NCBI RefSeq assembly: GCF_013315695.1
Contig: NZ_CP054353.1
DNA length: 64,000 nt
Origin: Escherichia coli
GTDB taxonomy: Bacteria; Pseudomonadota; Gammaproteobacteria; Enterobacterales; Enterobacteriaceae
Direction: 5' to 3' (one strand)
The notes under the pieces are model-generated. The model was given only the letters and a program-made list of their open reading frames with translations, was not told where the DNA came from and made no database searches. Made by a program: the position numbers and the translations under genes. How positions within the stretch are numbered: the stretch's first letter is position 1; each line of letters starts with the position of its first letter. This document shows, in pieces, positions 1-16,000 of this stretch.

Positions 1-632
1 TGGGCACCGCAGCTGGCCCACATCCTTATCCGACCATTGTCCGTGAGTTTCAGCGAATGATTGGCGAAGAAACCAAAGCACAGATTCTGGAAAGAGAAGG
101 TCGCCTGCCGGATGCGGTTATCGCCTGTGTTGGCGGCGGTTCGAATGCCATCGGCATGTTTGCAGATTTCATCAACGAAACCGACGTCGGCCTGATTGGT
201 GTGGAGCCTGGCGGCCACGGTATCGAAACTGGCGAGCACGGCGCACCGTTAAAACATGGTCGCGTGGGCATCTATTTCGGTATGAAAGCGCCGATGATGC
301 AAACCGAAGACGGGCAAATTGAAGAGTCTTACTCCATTTCTGCCGGGCTGGATTTCCCGTCCGTCGGCCCGCAACATGCGTATCTCAACAGCACTGGACG
401 CGCTGATTACGTGTCTATTACCGACGATGAAGCCCTGGAAGCCTTTAAAACGCTTTGCCTGCATGAAGGGATCATCCCGGCGCTGGAATCCTCCCACGCC
501 CTGGCCCATGCGCTGAAAATGATGCGCGAAAATCCGGAAAAAGAGCAGCTATTGGTGGTTAACCTTTCCGGTCGCGGCGATAAAGACATCTTCACCGTTC
601 ACGATATTTTGAAAGCACGAGGGGAAATCTGA
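1..632 (+). CDS. trpB: tryptophan synthase beta chain, 3' portion (5' end outside window)
   Basis: Frame open from window edge; translated C-terminus (...[13 protein letters not shown]...NLSGRGDKD...) is TrpB-like; stop overlaps next start as TGATG. Confidence 0.9.
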
Positions 633-1438: not shown

Positions 1439-1445
1439 TCCCACA

Positions 1446-1472
1446 GCCGCCAGTTCCGCTGGCGGCATTTTT
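1446..1472 (+). terminator. intrinsic terminator after trpA (trp t)
   Basis: Stem GCCGCCAG/CTGGCGGC with 5-nt loop followed by a T-run, directly after the trpA stop. Confidence 0.7.
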
Positions 1473-1818
1473 ACTTTCTTTAACGAAGCCGGAAAAATCC
1501 TAAATTCATTTATTATTTATCTTTTTACCGTTTCGCTTACCCCTGTCGAACGTCAACTTACGTCTTTTTTCCGCCCAACAGTAATATAATCAAACAAATT
1601 AATCCCGCAACATAACACCAGTAAAGTCAATAATTTTCTCTAAGTCACTTATTCCTCAGGCAATTGTTAATATATCCAGAATGTTCCTCAAAATATATTT
1701 TTCCTCTTTTTTCTCGTTACGCTTAATTTGACTAATTCTCATTTGCGACTAATTTTAATGAGTGTCGACACACAACACTCATATTAATCAAACAATGCAG
1801 CGCAACGGGAGAAATAAC

Positions 1819-1998
1819 ATGGCCGAACATCGTGGTGGTTCAGGAAATTTCGCCGAAGACCGTGAGAAGGCATCCGACGCAGGCCGTAAAGGCGGTCAGC
1901 ATAGCGGCGGTAATTTTAAAAATGATCCGCAACGCGCATCTGAAGCAGGTAAAAAATGCGGTCAACAAAGCGGTGGTAATAAATCAGGAAAATCCTGA
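1819..1998 (+). CDS. yciG: small KGG-repeat stress protein
   Basis: 59-aa product MAEHRGGSGNFAEDREKASDAGRKGGQHSGGNF...; GGGAG 8 nt upstream; the ORF-track ORF starts earlier at 1762. Confidence 0.8.
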   Translation: MAEHRGGSGNFAEDREKASDAGRKGGQHSGGNFKNDPQRASEAGKKCGQQSGGNKSGKS

Positions 1999-2083
1999 TT
2001 CACCGTTCATTATTAATATCAGCTGATAAAGATAATTGCATCTGCGGGCCGTATGGCTCGCAGTGATTTCACTGGAGAAAAAT

Positions 2084-2584
2084 ATGAATATGAAGACCAT
2101 TGAAGATGTATTTATTCACCTGCTTTCAGACACCTACAGTGCAGAAAAACAATTAACACGTGCACTGGCAAAACTCGCTAGAGCAACATCAAACGAAAAA
2201 TTAAGTCAGGCTTTTCATGCGCACCTCGAGGAAACACATGGACAGATTGAACGTATTGATCAAGTTGTGGAATCAGAATCGAATCTGAAAATTAAGCGCA
2301 TGAAATGTGTGGCAATGGAAGGTCTTATTGAAGAAGCTAATGAGGTCATCGAAAGTACCGAGAAAAACGAAGTGCGTGATGCCGCACTGATTGCCGCAGC
2401 ACAGAAAGTCGAGCATTATGAGATTGCCAGTTACGGGACATTAGCGACGCTGGCTGAACAATTAGGTTACCGTAAAGCAGCTAAGCTTCTGAAAGAAACT
2501 CTTGAAGAAGAAAAGGCCACCGACATCAAACTAACTGATCTGGCCCTTAATAACGTAAATAAGAAAGCCGAAAATAAAGCCTGA
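2084..2584 (+). CDS. yciF: ferritin-like stress protein YciF
   Basis: 166-aa product from MNMKTIEDVFIHLLSDTYSAEKQ...; ORF-track ORF extends upstream to 2036. Confidence 0.85.
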   Translation: MNMKTIEDVFIHLLSDTYSAEKQLTRALAKLARATSNEKLSQAFHAHLEETHGQIERIDQVVESESNLKIKRMKCVAMEGLIEEANEVIESTEKNEVRDAALIAAAQKVEHYEIASYGTLATLAEQLGYRKAAKLLKETLEEEKATDIKLTDLALNNVNKKAENKA

Positions 2585-2629
2585 AATATGAACTTTAACT
2601 TTTAGTCATTTTATAAAGAGGACATTTTC

Positions 2630-2921
2630 ATGAATCGTATTGAACATTATCATGACTGGTTACGTGACGCCCACGCAATGGAAAAGCAAGCCGAATCTAT
2701 GCTTTAATCCATGGCCAGCCGTATAGATAATTATCCTGAACTACGCGCTCGTATTGAACAACATCTTAGTGAAACCAAAAACCGATTGTTCAACTGGAAA
2801 CTATTCTTGATCGTAATGACATTTCACGTTCAGTCATTAAAGATTCCATGAGTAAAATGGCTGCGCTTGGGCAGTCAATCGGTGGTATATTTCCTTCTGA
2901 TGAAATAGTCAAAGGCTCTAT
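2630..2921 (+). pseudogene. yciE: yciE remnant: in-frame stop, -1 frameshift and truncation by IS1
   Basis: ATG at 2630 gives MNRIEHYHDWLRDAHAMEKQAESML then TAA at 2705-2707; same frame continues SMASRIDNYPELRARIEQHLSETKN; homologous reading resumes in another frame (VQLETILDRNDISRSVIKDSMSKMAALGQSIGGIFPSDEIVKGS) and runs into the IS1 end at 2922. Confidence 0.7.
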
Positions 2922-2976
2922 GGTGATGCTGCCAACTTACTGATTTAGTGTATGATGGTGTTTTTGAGGTGCTCCA

Positions 2977-3252
2977 GTGGCTTCTGTTTCTATCAGCTGT
3001 CCCTCCTGTTCAGCTACTGACGGGGTGGTGCGTAACGGCAAAAGCACCGCCGGACATCAGCGCTATCTCTGCTCTCACTGCCGTAAAACATGGCAACTGC
3101 AGTTCACTTACACCGCTTCTCAACCCGGTACGCACCAGAAAATCATTGATATGGCCATGAATGGCGTTGGATGCCGGGCAACAGCCCGCATTATGGGCGT
3201 TGGCCTCAACACGATTTTACGTCACTTAAAAAACTCAGGCCGCAGTCGGTAA
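2977..3252 (+). CDS. insA: IS1 InsA
   Basis: 91-aa product [39 protein letters not shown]... Confidence 0.95.
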
Positions 3253-3674
3253 CCTCGCGCATACAGCCGGGCAGTGACGTCATCGTCTGCGCGGAAATGG
3301 ACGAACAGTGGGGCTATGTCGGGGCTAAATCGCGCCAGCGCTGGCTGTTTTACGCGTATGACAGGCTCCGGAAGACGGTTGTTGCGCACGTATTCGGTGA
3401 ACGCACTATGGCGACGCTGGGGCGTCTTATGAGCCTGCTGTCACCCTTTGACGTGGTGATATGGATGACGGATGGCTGGCCGCTGTATGAATCCCGCCTG
3501 AAGGGAAAGCTGCACGTAATCAGCAAGCGATATACGCAGCGAATTGAGCGGCATAACCTGAATCTGAGGCAGCACCTGGCACGGCTGGGACGGAAGTCGC
3601 TGTCGTTCTCAAAATCGGTGGAGCTGCATGACAAAGTCATCGGGCATTATCTGAACATAAAACACTATCAATAA
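3171..3674 (+). CDS. insB: IS1 InsB frame (expressed as InsAB' by -1 frameshifting)
   Basis: 167-aa frame overlapping the insA 3' end; sequence typical of IS1 transposase. Confidence 0.9.
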
Positions 3675-3888
3675 GTTGGAGTCATTACCGTGATAAACAT
3701 CCGGTTTCTTCCACCATCGCACCGGACAGGCGACTATGAGGGGACAACGCCGCGCTCCGTTAACGCGGTAAACCCCGGTGTGTATCGTTTTTGATTATCC
3801 CCGCACACTCGCGCAGAGGAGTCTCCCTGTCGGGCTGCGGTCTCTGTTAATGAGGGAATACAGCGACGATACGGCGCATCAACAAAAC

Positions 3889-4356
3889 TTATTTCAGGCA
3901 CTGAGTACGGATATATTCCTGCGCCCCTTCCAGTTGCTTCTGCATCGTCATCAGCCGCTCTCTGAGGGTGAAATAATCCCGTGTAACGGTGTCTGCCAGT
4001 TGGGGGCCGGTTGCATTATCCACGCGGGCGGTGCCGGTGGCTTCACGCACGGGACCTGGACAGGTGGCGTTGATACGCAGGCGCTTACGACCAGCGGCAA
4101 CGTCAGCGCGAAGAGTTTCATTTTCAGCTTTCGCATCAGCTAACTCCTTCGTGTATTTTGCATCGAGCGCAGCAACATCACGCTGACGCATCTGCATGTC
4201 AGTAATTGCCGCGTTCGCCAGCTTCAGTTCTCTGACATTTTTGTCGCGCTGGGCTTTGTAGGTAATGGCGTTATCACGGTAATGATTCAGCCCCAGACTA
4301 AGCGCACCACAGGCCACCAGCAGGGCAATGATGACCACGCACAGTACGCGGTTCAT
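3889..4356 (-). CDS. Rz i-spanin
   Basis: 155-aa product with N-terminal TM segment ([16 protein letters not shown]) and coiled-coil-like periplasmic part; contains an embedded Rz1 frame. Confidence 0.85.
3951..4136 (-). CDS. Rz1 o-spanin lipoprotein, embedded in Rz in another frame
   Basis: 61-aa frame with signal peptide plus lipobox-like LVVSAC and a proline-rich mature part. Confidence 0.7.
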
Positions 4357-4357
4357 T

Positions 4358-4456
4358 TCACCACCAGCGTATCTGACCGATGAAATAACCGGAGGCCATA
4401 ATCACAAACACCAGCCAGATAAGAATGAACTTCCAGGTGGATAATTTTTCAGCCAT
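4358..4456 (-). CDS. putative 32-aa single-TM peptide, translationally coupled to Rz
   Basis: ATG preceded by GGGAG at 9-nt spacing; product [32 protein letters not shown]; its TGA lies 1 nt before the Rz ATG. Confidence 0.35.
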
Positions 4457-4654
4457 CACTCGAATCTCCCGAATCAGTTTGCTAAAATCAAACACACTTT
4501 CTCCTTTGACTTTTCCGGAGTCAGGAAACACAAAACCCCGCTTGGTGCCAACAAACGGGGTTTTTACTTTTATTCACTTACGTTTCGCCAGTTCGCAGGA
4601 TTTCGTGTTATCCGCCCGCGTGGCCATGCCTTATTTTTCAGCAAAATATTCTGC

Positions 4655-5188
4655 TTATCTGTCGATTCCCCAGCACGCCAGCGCGCTCTCCTGGTCACGA
4701 CGGGATACCTGACCATAACAGTTGTTTGAGCGGATACGGCAGTCTCTGCCACCGTCCTTAATCCACCAGCGAATCGCCTCACACGCTCCCCTGCGATCAC
4801 CTGCATTAATTCGTTTATAAAACGTCGACGGGAAACACTTACCGGGACCAATGTTGTACGGACAGAATGACGCGATCCCCGCTTTCTGGGGTTCACTCAA
4901 TGGCACTCTGATGTTTTTCTCCACCCATGCCAGCGCCTCATCACGCTCAATGGCGTTAACCCGGTCGCATTTTTCCTTCGACAACTTCATGCCCGGAACG
5001 ACAGGTTTGCCATCCACCAGGATGGCACCGCGGCAGATGGTCCAGATACCCGCACCATCACGGTATGCCGTGGTGTGGTTACCTTCCTTTTCATCCAGAA
5101 ACTGGTCGAGAATGTCAGGCGCAGGCGCACCAGCGGCAATCAGCGCCAGAACGGCAGCCGACAGGCCGTATCTGATTTTTGCGTTCAT
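4655..5188 (-). CDS. SAR endolysin (phage lysozyme, T4-lysozyme family)
   Basis: 177-aa product; N-terminal weakly hydrophobic signal-anchor-release segment (YGLSAAVLALIAAGAPAP) followed by a lysozyme-like domain. Confidence 0.85.
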   Translation of the reverse strand: MNAKIRYGLSAAVLALIAAGAPAPDILDQFLDEKEGNHTTAYRDGAGIWTICRGAILVDGKPVVPGMKLSKEKCDRVNAIERDEALAWVEKNIRVPLSEPQKAGIASFCPYNIGPGKCFPSTFYKRINAGDRRGACEAIRWWIKDGGRDCRIRSNNCYGQVSRRDQESALACWGIDR

Positions 5189-5293
5189 GGATATTTATCA
5201 GGATTTATCGGTTTCTGAGCCCTGGATATGTTTATCAGTTCCAGCCTGTTGCCTCAGGCTGCTAACAGGTCAATACAATCATGAGGATTATTT

Positions 5294-5566
5294 ATGGACA
5301 ATAACACCATTTCTCTACAGGAGTTGCTCGACAGCATTTCCAGGCTTCGGGAAGACGTGAATACCCTTACCGTCGCCTTCTCATATCTGGCATTCTCAAT
5401 TCCAAGGGAACAGATGCAATCAACGCTGGCATCAATCCAGTTTGAATCATGCAATCCCAAATGGTCTCAGGAACAACAAGACTCTTTCAGGCGGCTTGCT
5501 GTATTACTGGATGAAAAATATGCTGGTAAAATTACCATTTCGGCGGACTCTTCAGAGAACCCGTAA
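5294..5566 (+). CDS. hypothetical protein (90 aa), opposite strand to the lysis genes
   Basis: ATG with GAGGA 6 nt upstream; no recognised domain; 3' end overlaps the convergent 114-aa ORF by 35 bp. Confidence 0.4.
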   Translation: MDNNTISLQELLDSISRLREDVNTLTVAFSYLAFSIPREQMQSTLASIQFESCNPKWSQEQQDSFRRLAVLLDEKYAGKITISADSSENP

Positions 5567-5876
5567 TTATTCCCGGTAGTTTTCCTCTGTAGGTTATCAA
5601 CACATCCTGCGCCTCTAAAATTACGGGGCGCTTTTCCGGCGACTGCTCATCCCCTTCACATAACCCGGCAGCAACATCCAGGAAGACCTGTCTGATGCTC
5701 CTTCTGGCTGCTGCCTCATAAAACTCCAGCGCGGCACCTTCAACACGGTCCAGCGAGATGTCCAGGTCAAAAATTTCACCGTCAAAGCGTTTTTTGTCCC
5801 GTAACGCTAAAGTTACCGTAACTTTATTCTCAAAATTGCGGATCCCTTTCACAATCAGTTCATAGTTTTGAGTCAT
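5532..5876 (-). CDS. hypothetical protein (114 aa) immediately downstream of the holin
   Basis: ATG 4 nt after the holin stop with GGGGAGAG as SD; soluble-looking product MTQNYELIVKGIRNFENKV...; no recognised domain. Confidence 0.55.
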   Translation of the reverse strand: MTQNYELIVKGIRNFENKVTVTLALRDKKRFDGEIFDLDISLDRVEGAALEFYEAAARRSIRQVFLDVAAGLCEGDEQSPEKRPVILEAQDVLITYRGKLPGIITGSLKSPPKW

Positions 5877-5880
5877 TGAA

Positions 5881-6096
5881 TTACTCTCCCCGTGCAGCCT
5901 TACGACGGTCCTCTCTGATTTTGAAATACAGGTTAGTCAGATATGTCAGCAGCCCAAACAGCAGACTCCCCAGCACGCCTATTGCCGCCCACTGAGACGG
6001 GGAAACCCTGTCCAGCAACTGCAGGAACCAGTAGCCCGTTCCCACCGCTGACGTGGTGTATGACACACCTGTTGTGATTTTTTCCATCTGGTACAT
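5881..6096 (-). CDS. class II pinholin, phage-21 S-like, dual start (71-aa and 68-aa forms)
   Basis: [13 protein letters not shown]... with two in-frame Met codons 3 codons apart (starts at 6096 and 6087); two TM segments; C-terminus ...[14 protein letters not shown]; ORF-track ORF extends to 6174. Confidence 0.8.
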
Positions 6097-6131
6097 ACCC
6101 CGTCTCCCGTTATCCGGAAGCTGACAACAAT

Positions 6132-6162
6132 AAAAAAAGCCACCAGTTAAGTACTGATGGCT
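6132..6162 (-). terminator. intrinsic terminator between esterase and holin
   Basis: On the minus strand, a 10-bp stem (one mismatch) followed by TTTTTTTATT. Confidence 0.45.
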
Positions 6163-6246
6163 CTGATAACTCATGCAGGCATCTCAGACGACCCACTGAC
6201 ACTACCGGTGAGTTTAACGATACCTTCCATTTGGCTGGCTCACTTT

Positions 6247-8100
6247 TTATGATGATGCCGGTGCATTTATCTCCAGCACCAGACTTTCTATCTCAACGCC
6301 ATACGCTGCATTTTTGGTAATATCCGTCAGCGTCAGCGCATTCAGCCCCAGTGTCAGACTGTCTTTTATGACCTGGAATGCCGGGCCAGCCACTCCATTC
6401 AGTTTCGGAGTAACCGTGGCACTGCCGGCGGTGAACACCAGCTCCAGCGTCTGCCAGTCGTTACTGTAATTCCCGAACTCGCCCAACTTTGTGTTTCCTG
6501 CTTTCTTGTGATGCATCAGATTCAGTTTGCCGTCTGTGGTCTGGGTGAAGAACGACATCAGGAACGGGTTACCAGTCCCGGTCATCGCCACGACGTCAGG
6601 TAACGCTACATCGGTATACAGATAAATTCCCAGACCGAACTGGTTGTTGGTCAGTGCGCCTGACAGTCGAAACTTACAGCTCAGTCTGCCACCCCGTGTC
6701 AGCAGGGAGACTGCGTCATCCACCGGGCGCGTCAGGGACCAGGCTTTATTGCTCTGCTTGGTGATCTTAAATACACCATCTGACAACTGAATTCCGCCAT
6801 TCTTAATGCTCCAGCCCTGCGCAGCAGCGTCTCCGGCTGTCGGCAACAGGGAGATTGTGCGTATGGATGCATCTTCAGACGGCCCCGATGGCGTGTCGCC
6901 GCCGGGCGAGGGTTTGATTTCCGGTGCCTTACCACTAATGAAGGCTAAGGTGCGACCGGCTACGTTCAGAATAGCAGTTGCCATACGATCGGGAATAATG
7001 CCACGACGCGCCCATGAGCTGAAATGCGTCGGGCGATTTGATGATACCCAGTTTTTGTTCGTTCGGGATGCCGAACCGTAATAACCAGACCCGGCAATAT
7101 CAGGATCTTCTGACGGGTTGTTTGTCGGTGTATTAACTCCGCTACCATCGGTCATAAAGGGAACAAAATAAATCTGCTGGGATTCTTTACCTTTATATGC
7201 ACCATATACCACTTCATATTGCGTACCGTGTTCTTGTTTCCACGCGTATGTCGTGTCGCCACAAATCCAGGGGACTGATGCCGGACTTCCACCGTGACAC
7301 TGCGCCGCCAGCCCGGCAAGGTCAGCACGGAACTGCTGTACCATTGCAAGAAATGCTGCTGGCTGCTGGGCGTAACTGGCATTCGTCATATCGAATTCCC
7401 CCTGCATCCAGCATATCGCCAGCAAAACGTTTTTCGGGTTTTTCTGCAATGCTGCCTTCGTGCGGAAAAGCAGATCCTGATATAACGGCTTACCCACTCC
7501 CCAGCGAGCCGAATCCTGACTGGCTCCCGTGGACTCGCTGAATGTCCCCTCCGTGCCCTGGGTGAATGCCGAACCACCACGACAGCATGGTACCAGCAGG
7601 ATCCCCGCATTATTAGGGATATACGGAAGCAGTTTTTTGGCAATATGTAAGCCCTGTCCGACACAGCCGTACTGCCCTTTGCTCAGGTCAGCCCGGGGAT
7701 GGTTAATCGTACTCATATCCTGAACATCATGCAGACAATGGTCAGCAGGAATGATGTCGTTAAATACGCATACTTCACCACCGGGAGTCACTGTGTTACG
7801 ACGGGCCAGTTGCTTAATGCGCGGATGGGGCGCATCGTATGAATCCGGAAGCGGAAGCCCTTCACCGTAAGCCATGGCATTGGATTGCCCGGCCAGTACG
7901 ATGACGTAGTACCACTCCGGCTCAGTTGCACCACTGACGACCACATCACCTTCTGCTGCAATCGCCTGCATCAGGGTATAAGGGGTTATGGCCACCGGAC
8001 TACCAAACGGCTGCCAGCCCTCCTTCAGTTTTTGTGTCAGTCGTTTCGCAAGGTCTGACGGCGATGCCGCCCTGACCACGTCATAGTGTTTAAATGCCAT
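6247..8100 (-). CDS. prophage sialate O-acetylesterase-like SGNH hydrolase (NanS-p-like)
   Basis: 617-aa product; LAGQSNAMAYGEG block typical of SASA/SGNH esterases; GGGAGGA SD 5 nt upstream; position between tRNA genes and holin as in Stx-type lambdoid phages. Confidence 0.65.
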   Translation of the reverse strand: MAFKHYDVVRAASPSDLAKRLTQKLKEGWQPFGSPVAITPYTLMQAIAAEGDVVVSGATEPEWYYVIVLAGQSNAMAYGEGLPLPDSYDAPHPRIKQLARRNTVTPGGEVCVFNDIIPADHCLHDVQDMSTINHPRADLSKGQYGCVGQGLHIAKKLLPYIPNNAGILLVPCCRGGSAFTQGTEGTFSESTGASQDSARWGVGKPLYQDLLFRTKAALQKNPKNVLLAICWMQGEFDMTNASYAQQPAAFLAMVQQFRADLAGLAAQCHGGSPASVPWICGDTTYAWKQEHGTQYEVVYGAYKGKESQQIYFVPFMTDGSGVNTPTNNPSEDPDIAGSGYYGSASRTNKNWVSSNRPTHFSSWARRGIIPDRMATAILNVAGRTLAFISGKAPEIKPSPGGDTPSGPSEDASIRTISLLPTAGDAAAQGWSIKNGGIQLSDGVFKITKQSNKAWSLTRPVDDAVSLLTRGGRLSCKFRLSGALTNNQFGLGIYLYTDVALPDVVAMTGTGNPFLMSFFTQTTDGKLNLMHHKKAGNTKLGEFGNYSNDWQTLELVFTAGSATVTPKLNGVAGPAFQVIKDSLTLGLNALTLTDITKNAAYGVEIESLVLEINAPASS

Positions 8101-8294
8101 GAATCCTCCCGGGCGGGATAATGTTGTGAGTCAGATAAGGAGCAGGCTGAAGTCCGGAAGTTACAGGACAATGGCAGAAGGGAGACTACAGCCCGCAATT
8201 CGAAAAAGACCGCGCAGTTGCGCAGAGTGATTACTATGGGGTATTATTCGCCAGCTGAAATATTACTTCACGTTTTATTGTTTATTCCTTGCCG

Positions 8295-8322
8295 CCCGCG
8301 TCTCCCAGCGCGGGCTTTTTTT
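8295..8322 (+). terminator. plus-strand intrinsic terminator
   Basis: CCCGCG-loop-CGCGGG hairpin followed by a T7 run. Confidence 0.4.
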
Positions 8323-8325
8323 GTC

Positions 8326-8562
8326 CATAAGAAAGCCCCTCCGGAGAGGGGCTAAAGCCGCGTATCTGTATCATCATGCACATGGTGCCGGGTGCCTCCC
8401 GGTGAGTTCAGCCCGGTGCCACTAAACCCGCGTCATTCTCGTTTTGATAATCAGAGATTATACCGTCACCAGTCGCCCCTCCGCTCAGGGGGATTCACCA
8501 TGCGAAATTTTTTTAACAAATGCCCAGTCTGACAGGCAACTGTCAACTTACTGAATTGTGAG
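8326..8562. repeat. direct repeat copy A (about 237 bp) in the late operon
   Basis: Shares with copy B the blocks AAAGCCCCTCCGGAGAGGGGCT, CATGGTGCCGGGTGCCTCCCGGTGA, GCCCCTCCGC-CAGGGGGATTCACCATGC, TTTTAACAAA and CTGAATTGTGAG. Confidence 0.6.
8335..8352 (-). terminator. hairpin GCCCCTC-CGGA-GAGGGGC with downstream U-rich tract on the minus strand (repeat A)
   Basis: Perfect 7-bp GC stem; in minus orientation followed by TTTCTT. Confidence 0.45.
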
Positions 8563-8812
8563 CAACATAGCATTTAACGGGGAACCTGTTTTCTGCAGTA
8601 AAAAGGCCCACCGGAGCGGATGGGCCTGGAAGGATAGCGGTCATGTGATGCCGGTTTCCCGGTAACTCAGCACCGGTATCTGAGTCAACGTTTTCTCTAC
8701 TGGGTCATTTCCGATACGCCCTGCCTGCTGACAGGCTTTCATCACATCTGAAAATATAGCACCCTGACTGATACTGTAGTACCTAAGGTTCCAGAAACTG
8801 TGATGTATCCGG

Positions 8813-9038
8813 CACAGAAAAGCCCCTCCGGAGAGGGGCTGGAGAGTGGCGCTATGTGCCATTGCATGGTGCCGGGTGCCTCCCGGTGAATTCAGTACCA
8901 GCACCTGAATCCGCGATTATCCCATATACCTACTCGCTGATTGCCCCTCCGCACAGGGGGATTCACCATGCCAGTTTCTTTTAACAAACTCCCCGCAAAC
9001 CAGACAACAGTCAACCGCCTGAATTGTGAGACATTTAA
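8813..9038. repeat. direct repeat copy B
   Basis: Imperfect copy of repeat A about 480 bp away. Confidence 0.6.
8822..8839 (-). terminator. hairpin GCCCCTC-CGGA-GAGGGGC with downstream U-rich tract on the minus strand (repeat B)
   Basis: Same hairpin as copy A; in minus orientation followed by TTTTCT. Confidence 0.45.
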
Positions 9039-9074
9039 AAAAAGCCCGCAAAAGCGAGCCAGGGAAAATAAGTG

Positions 9075-9151
9075 TGGCGCGTTGTACTGGATTCGAACCA
9101 GTGACCGATTGCTTAGAAGGCAATTGCTCTGTCCGGCTGAGCTAACAACGC
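9075..9151 (-). tRNA. tRNA-Arg (anticodon UCU)
   Basis: Manual fold of the reverse complement: acceptor GCGTTGT/ACAACGC, D-arm GCTC/GAGC, anticodon stem ATTGC/GCAAT with loop CTTCTAA, T-arm ACTGG-TTCGAAT-CCAGT, discriminator G, CCA encoded. Confidence 0.8.
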
Positions 9152-9164
9152 AGGATACAGATAA

Positions 9165-9241
9165 TGGACCGCCTTCGGGGACCCGAACTCCGCGCAACCA
9201 GCTTCGAAAGCTGGCGCTCTTTCCTGATGAGCTAATGGCGG
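9165..9241 (-). tRNA. tRNA-like gene, Arg-type (anticodon UCG by manual fold), possibly degenerate
   Basis: D-arm TAGCTCATCAGGAAAGAGC, anticodon stem CCAGC/GCTGG with loop TTTCGAA, CCA encoded; one mismatch in the acceptor stem and one in the T stem; T-loop TTCGGGT is non-consensus. Confidence 0.5.
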
Positions 9242-9248
9242 TATGTGA

Positions 9249-9324
9249 TGGTGGCCCTTGCTGGATTTGAACCAGCGACCTGGCGATTATGAGTCGCTCG
9301 CTCTCACCACTGAGCTAAAGGGCC
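9249..9324 (-). tRNA. tRNA with CAU anticodon, ileX-like (tRNA-Ile2/lysidine type; could be Met)
   Basis: Acceptor GGCCCTT/AAGGGCC perfect, anticodon loop CTCATAA, T-arm GCTGG-TTCAAAT-CCAGC, discriminator A, CCA encoded; closely resembles E. coli ileX from memory. Confidence 0.8.
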
Positions 9325-9373
9325 GGGAGCAGAATAATAATGGTGCGTAATTAATTCTGCAATCTCATCCGTT

Positions 9374-10423
9374 TCAAACGATTAAATCCTGAACTTCCCT
9401 GACTGTCTGCTCAAAACGTCCGGTCTCCAGTTCAACGCCAATCGCACGACGCCCAAGCGCCAGTGCCGCTTTTACCGTTGAACCTGAGCCCATAAAAAAA
9501 TCTGCAACCAGGTCACCCGGACGACTGCTTGCGCTGATTATCTGCTGCAGCATTTCTGCCGGTTTTTCGCACGGATGTTTCCCGGGATAGAACTGCACCG
9601 GTTTATGTGTCCACACATCCGTGTACGGCACCTGCGCCGTCACACCAAAATACCGCCGCAGATGCTTATATTCACTCTGCAGCTCCACATACTGCCGGTT
9701 CAGTGACGTATACGTATCCACCAGCTGGTGGTGGGGCTTTTCCAGTTCACCGCGCTGATGTTTCTCTTCTGCCACCCGGGCAAACAGCGACTGTAATTTC
9801 AGATAATCGCTTTCGTTCGGTAGCTGCCACTGACTGGCACTGAACCAGTGCGACACCATGTTTTTCTTTCCTGTGGCATCTGCAATCTGTTTTGCCGTTA
9901 TCCCCAGGGCAGCGCGCGCATCACGAAAGTAAGAAATCAGCGGGGCCATCACATGCTGTTTCAGTGCACTGCCCTTCGCCGCATACCCGGCATCTTTCGG
10001 ACGATACGGCCCCTGATAATGTTCCGCGAACAGAATGCGCTCTGTGGCGGGGAAATACGCCCGCAGGCTTTCCTTGTTGCATCCGTTCCAGCGTCCGGAC
10101 GGCTTCGCCCAGATAATATGGTTCAGCACACTGAAGCGTTCACGCATCATGATTTCGATATCAGATGCCAGGCGATGACCACAGAACAGGTAAAGACTTC
10201 CGACAGGTTTCAGCACCCGCCAGAACTGCGCCAGACACTGGTCCAGCCACTTCAGGTAATCATCGTCGCCCTTCCACTGGTTATCCCAGCCCTCAGGCTT
10301 CACTTTAAAGTACGGCGGGTCCGTGACTATCAGGTCAACAGAATTTTCGGGTAACGACCGGATAAATTCCAGGCAGTCGGCGTTGATTAACTCACAACTG
10401 GATATTTTTACAGTATTAAGCAT
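9374..10423 (-). CDS. orphan DNA methyltransferase (beta-class N6-adenine/N4-cytosine type)
   Basis: 349-aa product with catalytic DPPY motif near the N-terminus (LIVTDPPYF) and AdoMet motif FFMGSGST near the C-terminus; no adjacent restriction endonuclease gene. Confidence 0.8.
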   Translation of the reverse strand: MLNTVKISSCELINADCLEFIRSLPENSVDLIVTDPPYFKVKPEGWDNQWKGDDDYLKWLDQCLAQFWRVLKPVGSLYLFCGHRLASDIEIMMRERFSVLNHIIWAKPSGRWNGCNKESLRAYFPATERILFAEHYQGPYRPKDAGYAAKGSALKQHVMAPLISYFRDARAALGITAKQIADATGKKNMVSHWFSASQWQLPNESDYLKLQSLFARVAEEKHQRGELEKPHHQLVDTYTSLNRQYVELQSEYKHLRRYFGVTAQVPYTDVWTHKPVQFYPGKHPCEKPAEMLQQIISASSRPGDLVADFFMGSGSTVKAALALGRRAIGVELETGRFEQTVREVQDLIV

Positions 10424-10561
10424 GGATCATTAAGCCTGTCTCTGATAGGCTCATTCTGCTTTTGCGCAAAGCAGTGGGCCTGAGGTTTGCTTGTGAACCC
10501 AACGCATGAGCAGATGGCTGGTGGGTGCCCCTAACACCCACCAGCCGCCCATTTACCACAA

Positions 10562-10587
10562 ATAAAAAAGCCTTCAGGACTGAAGGC
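10562..10587 (-). terminator. intrinsic terminator after the 65-aa ORF
   Basis: Minus-strand hairpin GCCTTCAG-TC-CTGAAGGC followed by TTTTTTATTT; stem overlaps the last codons of the upstream ORF. Confidence 0.55.
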
Positions 10588-10771
10588 GTCTGTAACAACC
10601 GAACTGATAGTCTGCCAGACCCGCCATAACCAGCTGGGTCAGTATTAACTGGCAGCGTTCGCGTGAAAGGTAAGTATTCTGCGCTATCTCCCCGACTGTC
10701 GCCGGTTCGGTAACGCTTAATTCATTAAACACCACTCTGGCGGTTTCTGTCATATCCTGCTGTTTTAGCAT
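10574..10771 (-). CDS. small winged-helix-like protein (65 aa)
   Basis: ATG at 10771 preceded by AAGGAAAAAG; product MLKQQDMTETARVVFNELSVTEPATVGEIAQNTYLSRERCQLILTQLVMAGLADY...; ORF-track ORF extends to 10858. Confidence 0.45.
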   Translation of the reverse strand: MLKQQDMTETARVVFNELSVTEPATVGEIAQNTYLSRERCQLILTQLVMAGLADYQFGCYRRLQS

Positions 10772-10902
10772 GTCTTTTTCCTTTTTCCGGTTAACGTGAC
10801 ATACCAATAACTCTTGTCGAAAAAGCCAGCAAGCTGAAAGACCCGTATTCGCAACCACCAGCGTGTTTACTGTACTGACGCGATTTTGGGCATAAAAAAA
10901 AA

Positions 10903-10925
10903 CCGCCTGACGGCAGTTTTTTTTC
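10903..10925 (-). terminator. bidirectional intrinsic terminator just downstream of Q (tR'-like)
   Basis: Short GC hairpin CUGCC-GUCA-GGCGG flanked by A8 and T9 runs. Confidence 0.5.
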
Positions 10926-10929
10926 TTAC

Positions 10930-10985
10930 TTTGCCATCGCGTACAAAATCGGCAAAATATCAGATTTATATGAAACGTACGCTAT
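10930..10985 (-). promoter_or_regulatory. candidate late promoter PR' region
   Basis: Minus-strand TATAAA hexamer about 20 nt after the Q stop with weak TCAATT 17 nt upstream; position analogous to lambda PR'; not verified. Confidence 0.25.
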
Positions 10986-11675
10986 TTAATTGACTTTTGC
11001 AATATCTCGTCGTGAAAAAGTCGCTTTTTGTTGCGCTCTTATTTTCACGGTGCAAATCACAGATTCTCTATCGAGACTCTTAAAAATATCGCACATCTCA
11101 CGCCAGTAGTTCGCATAATTATGGCTCCAGTTATCAGGCTTAACTCCACACAGTCTGGCAAGCTCCTGTCTCTGGTAGACCTCACACCCGGTAATCCATC
11201 CTCTGACATCCTGTGCCGCCAGCCAGATCAACTTCTTCACGCGCTCCTGCGTTTTCCCTGCAATTTTTCTGGTGCCGTACCGGGTTTTAAATTCATTCCA
11301 CACCCACTGCGTTATCGCGATCTGATATTCCCAACAAATACTCCCGCTGTAACACCACAACAACCAGGCTTTATGATGTTCTTCAAGAGACAGAACAGCC
11401 CGCCGCCACGATGATGTCGAAAACTCAACCGGACTGACGAGAGGAATTGACACCCCCTTCGCCAGCGATTGCTTTCCCGGGATTGGTGGATTATCCCGCG
11501 TTATCATTTTTCCAGTCACTTCATCGCGGTACCGGATTTTTTTACGCCTGTAACGCCCTGTATCAAACATGGCATTCTCCTGCCAGGCCTCAAGCTGCCC
11601 TTTTGTTGATCCACTCAAATCGGCGGTGGCAATCATGAGTTGCTCACGAACAAACTGTAAATACTGGTTATTCAT
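10986..11675 (-). CDS. putative late-gene antiterminator Q
   Basis: 229-aa ORF in the canonical position (after rusA, before the terminator-rich late operon); Cys-rich central region; the family assignment is by position and my recall only. Confidence 0.55.
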   Translation of the reverse strand: MNNQYLQFVREQLMIATADLSGSTKGQLEAWQENAMFDTGRYRRKKIRYRDEVTGKMITRDNPPIPGKQSLAKGVSIPLVSPVEFSTSSWRRAVLSLEEHHKAWLLWCYSGSICWEYQIAITQWVWNEFKTRYGTRKIAGKTQERVKKLIWLAAQDVRGWITGCEVYQRQELARLCGVKPDNWSHNYANYWREMCDIFKSLDRESVICTVKIRAQQKATFSRRDIAKVN

Positions 11676-12037
11676 GCGTACTCCAGTTCTGTGATTTTTA
11701 TCCCCAACCGCCCACCAGGAACAAGCTGACCGCGCACAATATTAATTTCATCAAACTGCTCGTCGTCTATGAGCAGCCCCGCATGCGTCAGTACATCCAG
11801 TGGTGCCTTCAGGATATTGTCCAGGTCACGACGGCGCTTATCCGGTGGCTCTGCAATAATTTCTATTGCCGGCCTTCCGGACAGGTTTAATTTCAGTTGC
11901 TGCTGGCGAACAATAAGCGCCACATCACGGCGATAACGCTCACCGACTTTTGATACAAAATATGTGCTGCCACGACGTCGCCAGTAAGTGTTCACCGTTG
12001 GCGGGTAAGGCAAAACAAATTCTATGCGTTCAGTCAT
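11672..12037 (-). CDS. rusA: RusA-type Holliday junction resolvase
   Basis: 121-aa product MTERIEFVLPYPPTVNTYWRRRG...DKRRRDLDNILKAPLDVLTHAGLLIDDEQ... matches the RusA pattern. Confidence 0.8.
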   Translation of the reverse strand: MTERIEFVLPYPPTVNTYWRRRGSTYFVSKVGERYRRDVALIVRQQQLKLNLSGRPAIEIIAEPPDKRRRDLDNILKAPLDVLTHAGLLIDDEQFDEINIVRGQLVPGGRLGIKITELEYA

Positions 12038-13093
12038 TTATGCTTTCCACTTCAGAACACCCGAATTTCTCGCGTGCATTAAAAAACGAATCAGCAACAA
12101 CAGCTGGCTGCCGTGTTTTTCTTCAAAATCTTTTACCCCGGCGTGTAGTTCGCTATGGCATTTACGGCACAGCGGAATAACAAACAAATCATCAGCCTTT
12201 GTTCCCATCCCTCCCAGTCCATGACCAATGATGTGATGCGGATCATCTGCCTGATTGCCACACGTCATGCATTTCTGCGTTTTTACCCAACGCGTGTATA
12301 CAGGCATCTCTTCCCGTTGTGATTTCTGGCGCTGGAGATACTGAGCCGGTGACTCCGGATCAACGGCAATGCTGACCACCGTCTTTTCCTGTGGCGGGTT
12401 TTGCTGGTGGGCGTGAGGCAGCGGCGCAAGATTTTTTGTGCGCTGCTTCAGTATGCTGGTGGCGGTCTGCTCTCCCGGTACGATGTCGCTTTCACGGTAC
12501 ATTGAGCGGATTTTTTCCGCACGCAACCCCAGCGAACGACGTAATACCGCTTCCGGTAGCGCGTCCGCCACCTGATTGCGGACCGCCCACCAGGATAATT
12601 CAGCCAGCGATAATTCCCGTTCCTGCGAGCCATTCATTGCATGGCGTATGACGTCAATCATCCATGCAGACAGGTTTTGGTGAGCAAGTTGCCCGAGTGA
12701 TTCGGAGGTCTGGTCGCGCAGCTGGTTGTCGCAGTGCCAGCACAACACCATTGCGCCGGTACCATAACGGTGAATGACGGTTTCACTGTGGTGATAATCG
12801 CCGTGTGGCCACTGGCAGGATTTAACATGGCGCAGTAACCAGTCAGACAATGCGCCAGCGCCACCAGCAGCACGAATCACTCGTTCGTCGCTGAAAAATG
12901 GCAGTAATGATTTATCCTCCGCCAGCGGCTGGCGAACGGCAGGAACGACCCCGGACGGCAGATTACGCATGCTTTTCGGTTCCGGCTCCACCAGTACCCG
13001 GGTATTGTGGAATACCGGCATGGATTCACGGCCCGGCTTAACGATCACCAGCCCGAGTTCCGGTACCAGAACAGGTCGAAGTAATACCCGCAC
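12038..13093 (-). CDS. DUF968-type phage protein (YdfU-like) with C-terminal HNH/zinc-finger-like motif
   Basis: 351-aa product; C-terminal CMTCGNQADDPHHIIGHG...CRKCHSELH motif. Confidence 0.6.
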   Translation of the reverse strand: MRVLLRPVLVPELGLVIVKPGRESMPVFHNTRVLVEPEPKSMRNLPSGVVPAVRQPLAEDKSLLPFFSDERVIRAAGGAGALSDWLLRHVKSCQWPHGDYHHSETVIHRYGTGAMVLCWHCDNQLRDQTSESLGQLAHQNLSAWMIDVIRHAMNGSQERELSLAELSWWAVRNQVADALPEAVLRRSLGLRAEKIRSMYRESDIVPGEQTATSILKQRTKNLAPLPHAHQQNPPQEKTVVSIAVDPESPAQYLQRQKSQREEMPVYTRWVKTQKCMTCGNQADDPHHIIGHGLGGMGTKADDLFVIPLCRKCHSELHAGVKDFEEKHGSQLLLLIRFLMHARNSGVLKWKA

Positions 13094-13094
13094 G

Positions 13095-13367
13095 TTACCT
13101 CCAGATGCGTTGCTGGAATGTGCGGGACGGACGCGGTGGGCGTTCAGAGTAAGGAAGCCTGACGGAGATTATCCAGTGACGATAATCGAGGCTGAGGGCT
13201 TTCTTAATCTCGTATCCGCGTCTGCGGTAGTTATGAATTAGCCATTCGGCCTGTTCTTCAGTACATGGTGGGTGTTGGTACCAGTCGGTTTTAAATGCGT
13301 GTGAACGCCGCCCATGCCGGATGGCAAGGTCGGTATCAGAATTGTGAAATTTGGTTTTGTGCGCCAT
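13095..13367 (-). CDS. hypothetical phage protein (90 aa), position of Qin rem
   Basis: ORF between hok and the DUF968 gene; no recognised domain. Confidence 0.4.
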   Translation of the reverse strand: MAHKTKFHNSDTDLAIRHGRRSHAFKTDWYQHPPCTEEQAEWLIHNYRRRGYEIKKALSLDYRHWIISVRLPYSERPPRPSRTFQQRIWR

Positions 13368-13432
13368 CTGTTTTCTCTGCTGGCGCAGCAGGTGTCAGGT
13401 GTTCAGGCTGACGTGCGAATTGTAAACCAGAA

Positions 13433-13466
13433 TGCCAGAAAAAAACAAAACCCGCCGAAGCGGGTT
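13433..13466 (-). terminator. intrinsic terminator downstream of hok
   Basis: Minus-strand hairpin AACCCGC-UUCG-GCGGGUU followed by a U-rich tract. Confidence 0.6.
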
Positions 13467-13534
13467 AAGTGCGGGTGCGTTGAGGATGCCTGACACATCA
13501 GAGGTGGCGAGGGATTTCTCCCCCGCCAGGTCTC

Positions 13535-13690
13535 TTACTCCTCAGGTTCGTAAGCTGTGAAGACAGCGACCTCCGTCTGGCCGGTTCGGAGTCGTACCTC
13601 GCAGAGGTCTTTCCTCGTTACCAGTGCCGTCACTATGACGGTTAAACAGATGACGATCAGGGCGATTAACATCGCCTTTTGCTGCTTCAT
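13535..13690 (-). CDS. hok: Hok/Gef-family type I toxin (HokD-like)
   Basis: 51-aa product MKQQKAMLIALIVICLTVIVTALVTRKDLCEVRLRTGQTEVAVFTAYEPEE; the ORF-track ORF carries a 19-codon in-frame upstream extension. Confidence 0.85.
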   Translation of the reverse strand: MKQQKAMLIALIVICLTVIVTALVTRKDLCEVRLRTGQTEVAVFTAYEPEE

Positions 13691-13927
13691 AGCCTGCTTC
13701 CCCTTGCCTTTCGGCACGTAAGAGGCTAACCTACATTTGTGAGACATAGATTGGGCCTCAGATTAATGTTAAGCGTCTTGCAGGACGCGAAATGTTAACT
13801 GGGGCTTTTCTCTATCTGCCTTTCAGTGTTCATGCCTGAGACAGATAGCCTCAAGCACCCGCAGCCATTCTACTTAACTCACGTCACCTCGCCAATATGA
13901 AATCAATCAGAAAGGTGATCCATAAAA

Positions 13928-14614
13928 TCACTCCTTCTCTTCTTTTCCGTAGTGGAGTTGGCCAATTTTGATAAGAGGGCGTCCCTGAGATTTGCGGTGT
14001 AGATTGGTATCGCGCAGAGAATACACACAGCCACAATATTCCTGCTGATAGAATTTTTCGCGCTTGCTGATTTCAATCATACGGGACGAGCCGCCCTGCT
14101 TGCGCCAGTTATAATCCCAGTACACCATACCCGGATAATGCGCAACAGCTCGCCGCCCACACTCGTTAACCTGCTGCATATTTTTCCAGCGTGAAATGCC
14201 CAGTGAACTGCTGATCACACTGAAACCATTTTCAGCAGCGTACAACGCTGTCCGCTCAAAACGCATGTCAAAACACATGGTACAACGGATCCCCCTCTCA
14301 GGCTCCCATTCCATTCCTTTGGCACGTTCAAACCAGTTGTCGGTGTCGTAATCAGCATCGATAAACGGCACGCCGTGTTGTTCAGCAAAGCGAATATTTT
14401 CATCCTTACGAATTAAATACTCTTTCTGAGGATGAATGTTCGGGTTGTAGAAAAAGATGGTGTAGTCGATTCCCGAGGCCTGAAGCGCCTCCATCACTTC
14501 ACCGGAACATGGAGCACAGCAAGAGTGCAGTAGTAGTTTGTTTGCCCCGTTTGGGAGCTCCAATTTAGGCCGTTTGAAATCAGCAATAGTCATAAATATT
14601 TTTATTGGGGTCAT
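13928..14614 (-). CDS. QueH-like (DUF208) epoxyqueuosine reductase homologue
   Basis: 228-aa product with N-terminal [11 protein letters not shown] motif and further Cys motifs (CTMCF, YCGCVY) characteristic of the QueH/DUF208 family; true start may be the Met 7 codons downstream. Confidence 0.6.
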
Positions 14615-14767
14615 GAAAATAGCACAGAGTGTAGCATCAGAGCAGGTCTATCGGGAATATATGTCTAAATCTGGTAATATCTGGTTTTGACGCAAAGCGG
14701 ACAACCACGCTGGCTCTACCCTGCGCCATGAAAATGTCAATTCACATCTGAACTAATGCTCTTTAAT

Positions 14768-15208
14768 CTAGTAACGTCTAAAATACCTAACATTTCCTTG
14801 ATAAAATGCCAGTACACGCTGCATAGCTTCGCTCTTCCGGCACTCGCGACAGATTATATTCAGGCGCCTGTCGTAGCGGCGTATTTCGCCGTCTGGTAAC
14901 GACCAGATAAGGTCCGGATCAACCACTGCAGGTTTCTTCACCTTTGCCCTTGAGAGTTTTTTGCGAGCATTTTGCCAGTCCTTACGCGCCTGTTCAGACG
15001 GGAATAACCCGTAACCAGAGTTGTATACATCGCCACTGGCAACCAGCTCTCTGGCGAGAACACTCATCAGATATCTTGTCGCACCTGTCCTGGCTTCCAG
15101 TTGCCGCAACGTCTCGCGACCGCTCAGACGTACAAGTTCAACAACCTGCCCTTTAATTTTTTCCCGCTCTTCTTGTGTAAATACTTTTGCCATAAGCGCC
15201 TCCGGCAA
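14768..15208 (-). CDS. hypothetical phage protein (146 aa)
   Basis: ORF in the nin-like region; C-terminal CRECRK motif; no confident domain call. Confidence 0.5.
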   Translation of the reverse strand: MPEALMAKVFTQEEREKIKGQVVELVRLSGRETLRQLEARTGATRYLMSVLARELVASGDVYNSGYGLFPSEQARKDWQNARKKLSRAKVKKPAVVDPDLIWSLPDGEIRRYDRRLNIICRECRKSEAMQRVLAFYQGNVRYFRRY

Positions 15209-15979
15209 TCACTTTTCCGATACAACACGGCGGGAAGAATCAGTAATCTGTCGAACAATATCCCGGTGCTTGTTCAGCTCCCGCAGCGCGGCGCAGACTC
15301 GCTCCCACTTCTGAACATCACTTTTCGCCCTGCGCAGCGCCAGGTTTGCCCTGCGAAGGGACGGAAAAATCAGCTCATCTGCTTGCGTTTCGGTAAACGA
15401 TGGCAACGGCTGCACAATGTCCGCCACAGTTTCTGTTTTAATTTCTTCCTGTGTTGCGGCTTCCCGGACTGGTAACGCAGCACCTGCTGGCTGAGGAAAG
15501 GCCTTACCATCACTTTCCGTTACCAGCGCGGCTTTCGGCTCTGCTGGTAAATTATCGCCCGGCATGCAGTAACGAAATTTACCGTTCTGATTAACGCGTG
15601 CCAGCCGCCCCGTTGCGGTTACCACCGCCAGCGTGGAAGCAACCTTGCGAGTACTGACACCGAACTTACCCGCCAGTTCCTCACACGTTTTAGCCCCATC
15701 CTGACCGATAAACTCAATCATCATGTCTGCGGTAACTTTTTGTTCGACCTCCCCGGTCAGCATATCCTGTGCTTCAGATTTTACTGGCCGCTCTTCGGTT
15801 ACCCGGGATTCACCTTCGCCAGCCAGAAACCAGGTGTGACCAGTTTTATCAACGACGCCTTTTCTTTTGAGTTCCCACAGCTCGTTGACAGCCTCTTCAC
15901 GACTGATTCCAAGGCGAGCTGCCACCACATGTGAAGAGGCTTTTTTCAGTGCTTTCAGTGCGTCAGATACGGTTTCCAT
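15209..15979 (-). CDS. hypothetical phage protein (256 aa) with N-terminal winged-helix-like repeats
   Basis: ORF directly downstream of the DnaC-like gene; two similar N-terminal segments (SHVVAARLGISREEAVNELWELKRKG / KTCEELAGKFGVSTRKVASTLAVV). Confidence 0.5.
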   Translation of the reverse strand: METVSDALKALKKASSHVVAARLGISREEAVNELWELKRKGVVDKTGHTWFLAGEGESRVTEERPVKSEAQDMLTGEVEQKVTADMMIEFIGQDGAKTCEELAGKFGVSTRKVASTLAVVTATGRLARVNQNGKFRYCMPGDNLPAEPKAALVTESDGKAFPQPAGAALPVREAATQEEIKTETVADIVQPLPSFTETQADELIFPSLRRANLALRRAKSDVQKWERVCAALRELNKHRDIVRQITDSSRRVVSEK

Positions 15980-16000
15980 TAAAATTTCCTCCGGACAAAA

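Follow-up and report, generated by a model that had tools for sequence, protein, structure and literature searches.

How are genes expressed that lie behind a series of transcription terminators pointing in their own direction? This question is raised by a 64,000-nt stretch of Escherichia coli DNA (contig NZ_CP054353.1 of assembly GCF_013315695.1; hereafter the window), in which hairpins followed by U-tracts occupy the minus strand between a prophage antiterminator gene, Q, and the holin gene that opens the lysis cassette. The original prediction, made from the sequence alone, had listed five such sites and proposed that the methyltransferase, tRNA, esterase and lysis genes beyond Q are transcribed mainly through Q-mediated antitermination and are silent in the lysogen unless internal promoters exist. 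Our analysis reveals eight candidate sites, named T1 to T8 in the order of late transcription. We consider it likely that the interval from Q to the holin gene is the promoter-proximal section of the late operon of a lambdoid prophage of the Shiga toxin (Stx) phage type without stx, built like that of 933W and other Stx2 phages, where a constitutive late promoter (pR') would be followed by cassettes with terminators of their own, all of them read through by a Q-modified RNA polymerase.

Clustering of terminator candidates on the late strand

Both strands of the whole window were scanned with a d'Aubenton-Carafa-type score (d), which combines the hairpin energy per length with a weighted T-tail. 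Folding was done with ViennaRNA, and z-scores were calculated against dinucleotide shuffles. The scan identifies eight intrinsic-terminator candidates on the minus (late) strand between positions 6100 and 10950. All five sites reported earlier were found where the original prediction had placed them, namely T1 (hairpin at 10916-10903), T2 (10587-10570), T4 (8839-8822), T6 (8352-8335) and T8 (6161-6139), and three are new, namely T3 (9059-9044), T5 (8626-8605) and the weak T7 (8225-8210; d = 4.4). The eight sites are intergenic, have the orientation of the late strand and are located after Q and pR', a 65-amino-acid (aa) open reading frame (ORF), the tRNAs, the bodies of small RNA (sRNA) genes and the esterase gene. 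Their stems are 5-12 bp long, with folding energies of -9.3 to -18.5 kcal/mol and z-scores of -2.6 to -6.5 (-10.5 to -18.5 kcal/mol and -2.8 to -6.5, respectively, for the five sites reported earlier). Clear U-tracts are present directly 3' of the stem in T1 (U9), T2 (U6AUUU), T3 (U7) and T8 (U7AUU), and short or interrupted ones in T4 (UUUUCUGU), T5 (UUUUUACU), T6 (UUUCUUAU) and T7 (UCUUUUUCG).

Matches to a hairpin plus a run of T could in principle arise by chance, and a generic scan of positions 1-20000 indeed gave only a mild excess over shuffled sequence (29 sites versus 21.1 +/- 4.6). However, under the stricter score, 60 dinucleotide-preserving shuffles of 6100-10950 contained a mean of 0.13 candidates (maximum 1) against the 8 observed, and at d > 15 none against 7. 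The interval makes up 7.5% of the window length, yet it holds 8 of the 18 minus-strand candidates of the window, and a single candidate is present on its plus strand. The sites are also conserved, and covary, in related phages. Chance, to which we assign practically no probability, is thus refuted by the shuffle statistics and by the covariation of T1 described below, and the clustering is real, non-random, strand-specific and was under-counted at first reading. The same scan applied between Q and the holin gene finds six late-strand terminators in 933W, five in Stx2a_WGPS2 and six in PPyecE_EH1910.

The genetic setting of the cluster is well defined. Positions 8000-12100 of the window are 100% identical to prophage DNA of many E. 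coli genomes, for example CE10 (NC_017646), whose RefSeq annotation gives the order DUF968, RusA, antitermination protein Q, hypothetical protein, DNA methyltransferase, tRNA-Ile, tRNA-Arg, tRNA-Arg, SASA esterase, class II holin, YdfR and lysozyme. Counterparts of all these genes are present on the minus strand of the window, and Pfam confirms Q, the methyltransferase, the esterase, the holin and the lysozyme. Directly observed are the sequence elements themselves and the fact that they cluster non-randomly, are conserved, covary and have homologues among annotated or published features.

The Q module and its proximal terminator candidate

The Q gene (10986-11675, minus strand) encodes a protein of 229 aa which matches positions 1-217 of the 220-position Pfam model PF06323 (E 1.4e-83) and phrog_304, 'anti-termination protein Q-like', in PHROG. 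PF06323 is the Q82 family, one of three unrelated families of Q proteins (PMC9388147), and at the DNA level the gene is 77% identical to a fragment of phage 82 Q (X92588). A predicted late promoter pR' (10974-11002, minus strand) overlaps the 3' end of Q. It consists of a -35 element TTGCAA (11002-10997), a 17-bp spacer and a -10 element TACGTT (10979-10974), and the deduced start is A10967, with AAA as initial bases. Immediately downstream lies a predicted sigma70-dependent pause and Q-loading region (10943-10962, minus strand), with an extended -10-like element TGaTATTTT from +6 to +14, GCC from +15 to +17, an AT-rich stretch and a U at +25 (10943). For 82 pR', the literature describes a transcript beginning with AAA and a -10-like pause element that carries a TG extension; a GCC discriminator follows at +15-17, and the polymerase pauses at +25/26, where the terminal base is a U (PMC5001585). 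The window sequence AAATCTGATATTTTGCCGATTTTGT puts each pause element at its published position, and we assign pR' to the phage 82 type because every position fits this description. The assignment rests on that verbal description together with phage 434 and other relatives; a full-text search for the exact 82 pR' leader string returned unrelated papers only, and X92588 ends inside Q, before pR'.

Alignment of the 3' end of Q and the region downstream of it reveals how much of this arrangement is shared. The window, phage 434, PPompW and PhiR47_2 have in common the -35 element TTGCAA, the 17-bp spacer, a -10 box, six bases and AAAT(C/T)TG(A/G)TAT, with the -10 reading TACGTT in the window versus TATATT or TATACT in the other three. 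Gifsy-1, the most divergent member of the alignment, has only the hairpin and U-tract in common with the window. Across 81 IMG/VR loci whose Q relatives are 82-100% identical, the architecture of promoter and pause is kept in 31 of the 32 distinct sequences downstream of Q, and the pause region is invariant or nearly so over 18 aligned leaders.

The first terminator candidate, T1 (10894-10925, minus strand), spans +43 to +74. The original prediction had placed a terminator 'after Q' at 10903-10925; a hairpin is indeed present there, and its position makes it the tR' of the promoter overlapping the 3' end of Q rather than the terminator of the Q gene. It is formed by a core stem of the CTGCCG/CGGCGG type (10916-10903) with an A8/U9 extension, followed by U9 (10902-10894), and its 41-nt context folds at -18.5 kcal/mol (z -6.5). 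With A8 and U9 on its two sides, it has the form of a bidirectional terminator. Termination here would give a pR' RNA of about 73 nt; the predicted 75-nt leader folds into two hairpins (-26.8 kcal/mol, z -4.4). A hairpin with a T6-T9 tract is present at this position in all relatives, with the pairing always kept through at least nine stem variants. RNAalifold on 18 distinct leaders of the long form described below gives a T1 stem in which four pairs are changed on both sides, with essentially no broken pair. The curated record of phage 434, whose Q is labelled 'Q82-like', annotates the equivalent hairpin as 'terminator', and this is the sole terminator annotated after Q.

T1 also marks a boundary. 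Homology to Stx2 phages that carry unrelated Q alleles (two loci, L002 and L003) starts exactly at the U-tract of T1, and a different hairpin occupies the same spot in those phages. The U-tract is therefore a recombination joint between the Q/pR' module and the cargo downstream, and each Q allele travels with its own promoter, Q-utilisation site (qut) and terminator stem.

Whether T1 or the next site, T2, would be the effective tR' deserves consideration. T1 might be leaky or non-functional, in which case T2, alone or with later sites, would end a lysogen pR' RNA that covers the 65-aa ORF and measures about 400 nt; in Sp5 and 933W, too, the transcript ends at the second hairpin. Two 'possible terminators' follow pR' in the 933W record, and the 3' end that Sy et al. 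mapped for the pR' transcript is 258 nt downstream, at the second 933W hairpin (PMC7547250). The core GC stem of T1, moreover, has only 5 bp (-6.9 kcal/mol). However, the U9 and the A-tract of T1 lengthen its stem to 14 pairs, with the energy of -18.5 kcal/mol given above, a hairpin and U-tract have been retained at this position in Q82-type leaders despite complete replacement of the stem, and phage 434 has no annotated terminator after Q other than the equivalent of T1. The 258-nt species of Sp5 is also compatible with partial termination at the first hairpin. We therefore hold it unlikely that T2 takes the place of T1 as tR'.

Two side observations concern the same leader. Comparison of the window (10894-10967) with loci L004, L009, L069 and L088 shows that Q82-type leaders are either long or short: in the long form, to which the window belongs, a further conserved hairpin from +9 to +42 precedes tR', and in the short, phage 434-like form tR' follows right after the pause region. 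A permissive Rfam scan over the T1 region gave isrK (19.6 bits), Phe_leader (25.9 bits) and, on the plus strand, STnc370 (39.4 bits), all below threshold, and none was accepted.

Cassettes between the Q module and the lysis genes

The 65-aa ORF (10574-10771, minus strand) has no Pfam match, and its only PHROG match, phrog_331, is of unknown function. Its DNA is more than 90% identical in Stx2 phages with unrelated Q alleles. T2 (10562-10587, minus strand) contains the stop codon of this ORF in its hairpin, a 7-bp stem followed by U6AUUU (-10.5 kcal/mol, z -3.8); in PPyecE_EH1910 the stem is retained and the loop differs. About 20 nt 3' of T2 and 5' of the methyltransferase gene, a further minus-strand hairpin of about 14 bp is present at 10513-10549 (-33.7 kcal/mol, z -6.0). 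It has no U-tract, and Stx2 phages retain it with a single G-C pair replaced by G-U; RNA processing may take place here, or the hairpin may be a non-canonical signal for termination or pausing. The DNA methyltransferase gene (9374-10423, minus strand; N6_N4_Mtase, PF01555, E 2.7e-44) follows. Just 5' of its start codon, a modest hairpin at 10433-10451 (z -1.1, not significant against shuffles) is also read by the generic scan as a plus-strand terminator-like site.

A predicted tRNA promoter, pT (9334-9362, minus strand; TTGCAG, 17 bp, TATTAT), is located between the stop codon of the methyltransferase gene and tRNA-Ile, and can be aligned, base for base, with the feature that the 933W record lists as 'pT; putative tRNA promoter'. 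The three tRNA genes behind it (9075-9324, minus strand), identified by ARAGORN, Rfam and the CE10 RefSeq annotation, are homologues of ileZ (anticodon CAT), argN and argO. The first of them (9249-9324) is called tRNA-Met (CAT) by ARAGORN versus tRNA-Ile (ileZ) by RefSeq and the 933W record; the latter annotation implies that the CAU anticodon is modified with lysidine. T3 (9036-9060, minus strand) follows the tRNA cluster and has a homologue in 933W that is annotated as 'possible rho-independent terminator upstream of the stx genes'. A generic promoter scan of 6100-10950 found no sigma70-like site on the minus strand, a weak negative because the scan also misses pT, whose -35 matches at 3/6 positions.

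Between T3 and the esterase gene, the window carries an array of sRNA genes. Two STnc100 genes, copy A (8810-9000, minus strand; 136.3 bits) and copy B (8323-8532, minus strand; 165.4 bits), match Rfam model RF02076 over its full length, above its gathering score of 47 bits. A degenerate STnc100-like element between them (8598-8771, minus strand) scores 30.1 bits (E 9e-4), which is below the threshold, and it does not count as a member of RF02076. The 3' hairpins of these three units are T4 (8822-8839), T6 (8335-8352) and T5 (8605-8626), respectively; T4 and T6 have identical 8-bp GC stems (-17.3 and -17.2 kcal/mol). The terminators that had been noticed in each tandem repeat are thus present, only they are the 3' ends of STnc100 sRNA genes and not punctuation evolved for the operon. 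STnc100 copies occupy the same place, 3' of stx2B, in 933W and Stx2a_WGPS2, and STnc100 is related to the sRNAs PasD1 and PasD2 of enteropathogenic E. coli (EPEC; bioRxiv 10.64898/2026.05.13.724894).

These tRNA and sRNA units bear on the expectation that the genes behind Q are silent in the lysogen. A primary transcription start site (TSS) that drives the tRNAs has been mapped in lysogens of Sakai Sp5 by Sy et al. in 2020 (PMC7547250), STnc100 copies are transcribed in uninduced EDL933, where one copy was confirmed by Northern blot (PMC5331693), and STnc100 promoters are bound by RpoD in Salmonella LT2 (PMC10794520). Because pT is conserved and STnc100 genes have published promoters of their own, the tRNAs and sRNAs are probably expressed in the lysogen. 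For the tRNAs the expected silence is probably wrong, and the proviso about internal promoters in the original prediction was apt.

On the plus strand, a candidate sRNA gene (8269-8322) with its own terminator (8294-8315 followed by U7) converges with STnc100 copy B. It is located at the position of AsxR in 933W and AgvB in PPyecE_EH1910, with which it has a promoter-like upstream region in common, while its body and terminator stem differ; the Rfam models of AgvB and AsxR do not detect it. An EPEC RIL-seq sRNA candidate, 'E2348C_1409.E2348C_1408.IGR', matches its body and has the seed CUUGCG in common with it; the gene may be a third allele of this anti-sRNA locus. An OmrA-B match of 25.2 bits over the same sRNA was below the Rfam threshold and was not accepted.

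The last two terminator candidates frame the esterase gene (6247-8100, minus strand), which encodes a NanS-p-type sialate O-acetylesterase with Pfam domains DUF1737, SASA and DUF6645. T7 (8203-8225, minus strand; -9.3 kcal/mol), 5' of this gene, is a weak terminator-like hairpin and a weakened copy of a stronger hairpin found 5' of the esterase gene in 933W and PPyecE, which in 933W has the form GGCTGCGCAACTGCGCGGCC followed by U5. T8 (6132-6164, minus strand) is located 36 nt 5' of the start codon of the class II (phage 21-type) holin gene (5881-6096, minus strand; PF04971, E 9e-33), the first gene of the lysis cassette. It has a stem of 9-12 bp followed by U7AUU (-17.0 kcal/mol, z -5.5) and is conserved in 933W, WGPS2 and PPyecE. 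At the same position, PP2 of E2348/69 has a terminator of different sequence, with a compensatory A-T to G-C change. We also considered T8 as the terminator of PasA, which lies between the EPEC esterase and holin genes, and rejected it: in E2348/69, PasA is encoded on the other strand, and the window does not contain its sequence.

In Stx2a strains, nanS-p transcripts increase by 1-2.4 logs (10- to 250-fold) with mitomycin C (PMC10462455). The esterase and lysis genes probably depend on Q. Such dependence is consistent with this published induction, and here the behaviour that had been foreseen for them fits.

Some of these hairpins, especially T7, T2 and the one at 10513-10549, might instead be processing or stability elements of a long late mRNA, blocking 3' exonucleases or serving as RNase III or RNase E sites, and not terminate at all. 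The low terminator score of T7, the high stability of the 10513-10549 hairpin together with its missing U-tract, and the processing of the Sp5 pR' RNA by RNase E (PMC7547250) are in line with such a role. However, a stability element needs no U-tract, and T1, T2, T3 and T8 all have canonical ones directly 3' of their stems. We judge a processing role improbable.

Other features of the window lie outside this series. A 13-bp hairpin at 4532-4564, flanked by A and T runs and readable on both strands (-18.9 kcal/mol, z -3.9), has the form of a bidirectional terminator and is located within the lysis cassette, in a 300-nt gap from the lysozyme gene to Rz. Further RNA genes of the window are, in order, the sok antitoxin RNA (13685-13860, minus strand), which adjoins hokD in the CE10 annotation, DicF (20354-20405, plus strand), isrC (32619-32741, plus strand) and two tRNA-Tyr genes (55993-56195, plus strand). 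A strong minus-strand terminator is present at 13451-13464.

A proposed Q-controlled operon with terminated cargo

We propose the following course of events, in which the efficiency of each terminator, the activity of the promoters and the dependence on Q are, for this strain, inferred. In the lysogen, the phage-82-type pR' would fire constitutively, and the polymerase would pause at about +25 at the sigma70-dependent pause element. Without Q it would then stop at tR' (T1), releasing the RNA of about 73 nt, and any leak would be stopped about 330 nt further at T2, a second lock. Downstream, cassettes of the 'moron' kind would each be closed by an intrinsic terminator of their own: the 65-aa ORF by T2, pT and the three tRNAs by T3, STnc100 copy A by T4, the degenerate copy by T5, copy B by T6 and the esterase gene by T8. 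The pT-tRNA and STnc100 units would be expressed in the lysogen from their own promoters, with 3' ends set by T3 to T6. The cassette terminators would also keep both cassette transcription and the leak from pR' off the holin gene, with T8 as the last barrier. Upon induction, Q would load onto the paused polymerase and make it terminator-resistant, so that transcription continues past all eight sites and reaches the lysis and structural genes. It has been reported that pR' is constitutive and terminated in lysogens (PMC7547250). A series of co-oriented terminators between Q and the lysis genes, as had been proposed for this DNA, is in place, and a Q-modified polymerase is the accepted way across it.

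Several points weigh against this reading. The U-tracts of T4 and T6 are short and interrupted and T7 is weak, so termination may be inefficient at some of the sites. For the methyltransferase and esterase genes no promoter was identified, which fits the model as negative evidence only, and the STnc100 promoters in the window could not be assigned with confidence from sequence, the unverified candidates being a TTGTCT/TTGCCT -35 and a TGnTAAAA(G/A) extended -10. Finally, the pR' transcript of Sakai Sp5 and 933W is 258 nt long (PMC7547250) and therefore passes a first hairpin with U7 no less convincing than T1; good appearance does not guarantee that a first hairpin is the efficient tR'. T1 may thus be leaky, T2 then being the second lock.

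The hairpins might also be merely the 3' ends of independent genes (sRNAs, tRNAs and morons) which recombination has gathered here, with no selected gating or insulating role and with the clustering a by-product of hot-spot cargo. At least T3, T4, T5 and T6 belong to units that have promoters of their own elsewhere, the window is homologous to other phages in a mosaic fashion, one junction falling precisely on the T1 U-tract, and the cargo from the tRNAs to the esterase gene varies by phage (stx2AB, STnc100 copies, other ORFs). However, T1, T2 and T8 end no known autonomous promoter-bearing gene, and a terminator just 5' of the holin gene recurs with different sequences. This explanation is a serious one, although we judge it somewhat less than an even prospect. 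It is also largely compatible with an insulating role, because the terminator of a moron insulates whatever the reason for its presence.

A more speculative extension is that the RNA of about 73 nt from pR' to tR' could act in trans as a regulatory sRNA, in the manner of StxS or IsrK. The RNA would be constitutive and would have two hairpins and a long U-tract end, which is the usual Hfq-binding form, and in Q82-type relatives the leader sequence is conserved well beyond the pausing elements. Likewise, the terminator series, especially T8, may be selected insulation that keeps active tRNA and sRNA cassettes from switching on the holin gene. We offer both ideas with low confidence.

The layout of 933W and Sakai Sp5 (NC_000924; PMC7547250) is Q, pR', qut, tR', pT, ileZ-argN-argO, a terminator, stx2AB, STnc100/AsxR, nanS-p and S, and the 933W record already annotates pR', qut, two terminators, pT and the post-tRNA terminator. 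The window has the same order of modules, homologous pT and homologous post-tRNA and pre-holin terminators, and a late-strand STnc100 gene with a convergent small RNA at its 3' end. However, it has a phage-82-type Q allele and pR'/qut/tR' stem, its leader RNA is predicted at about 73 nt instead of 258 nt, and it contains no StxS sequence. In contrast to 933W, and as in Stx2a_WGPS2, the 65-aa ORF, T2 and the methyltransferase gene are located between tR' and the tRNAs. Where 933W has stx2AB, the window has two intact and one degenerate STnc100 copies. With phages 82 and 434 (PMC5001585; OL657226) the window has in common a PF06323 Q, the -35 TTGCAA with its 17-bp spacer, the AAA start, the pause elements and, at most about 75 nt from the start, a terminator made of a hairpin and a U-tract; it differs from phage 434 in the -10 sequence noted above and in the long leader with its hairpin from +9 to +42.

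Lambda provides the general scheme of a constitutive late promoter, a sigma70-dependent proximal pause, an immediate terminator and a Q-modified polymerase that passes downstream terminators. However, lambda Q is a member of the unrelated family PF03589, the lambda pause is at +16/17, and no cargo cassettes separate lambda tR' from S, which comes directly after it. The lambda 6S RNA is 194 nt long. Morons, promoter-gene-terminator cassettes inserted in lambdoid phage genomes, are a concept reportedly introduced by Hendrix and colleagues. The pT-tRNA-T3 and STnc100 units resemble them in appearing autonomous within a phage operon, with 3' terminators of their own, but their cargo consists of RNA genes and not of protein genes. 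In Salmonella Gifsy-1, which encodes IsrK, a Q82-family Q gene is likewise followed by a hairpin and U-tract. As with IsrK and with StxS of enterohaemorrhagic E. coli (EHEC), the predicted 73-nt RNA would be a constitutive, structured by-product of antitermination control. Its match to Rfam isrK, the 19.6 bits mentioned above, is far below the threshold of 50.

The layout is already known, being the standard Q/pR'/tR' control and moron architecture of lambdoid and Stx phages, here in an stx-less prophage with a phage-82-type Q module, and lysogen transcripts of this kind (the pR'-tR' RNA and the tRNA TSS) were mapped by differential RNA sequencing (dRNA-seq) and Term-seq in 2020 (PMC7547250). 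In itself the finding is therefore of little importance; its practical value is a clean annotation of a widespread stx-less E. coli prophage. This annotation supplies an 82-type pR' with a predicted start and pause site and eight terminator candidates, and it indicates which genes are probably expressed in the lysogen (the tRNAs and sRNAs) and which probably upon induction only (the esterase and lysis genes). The position that stx occupies in toxin phages holds an array of sRNA genes here, which is relevant to the exchange of sRNA cargo among prophages.

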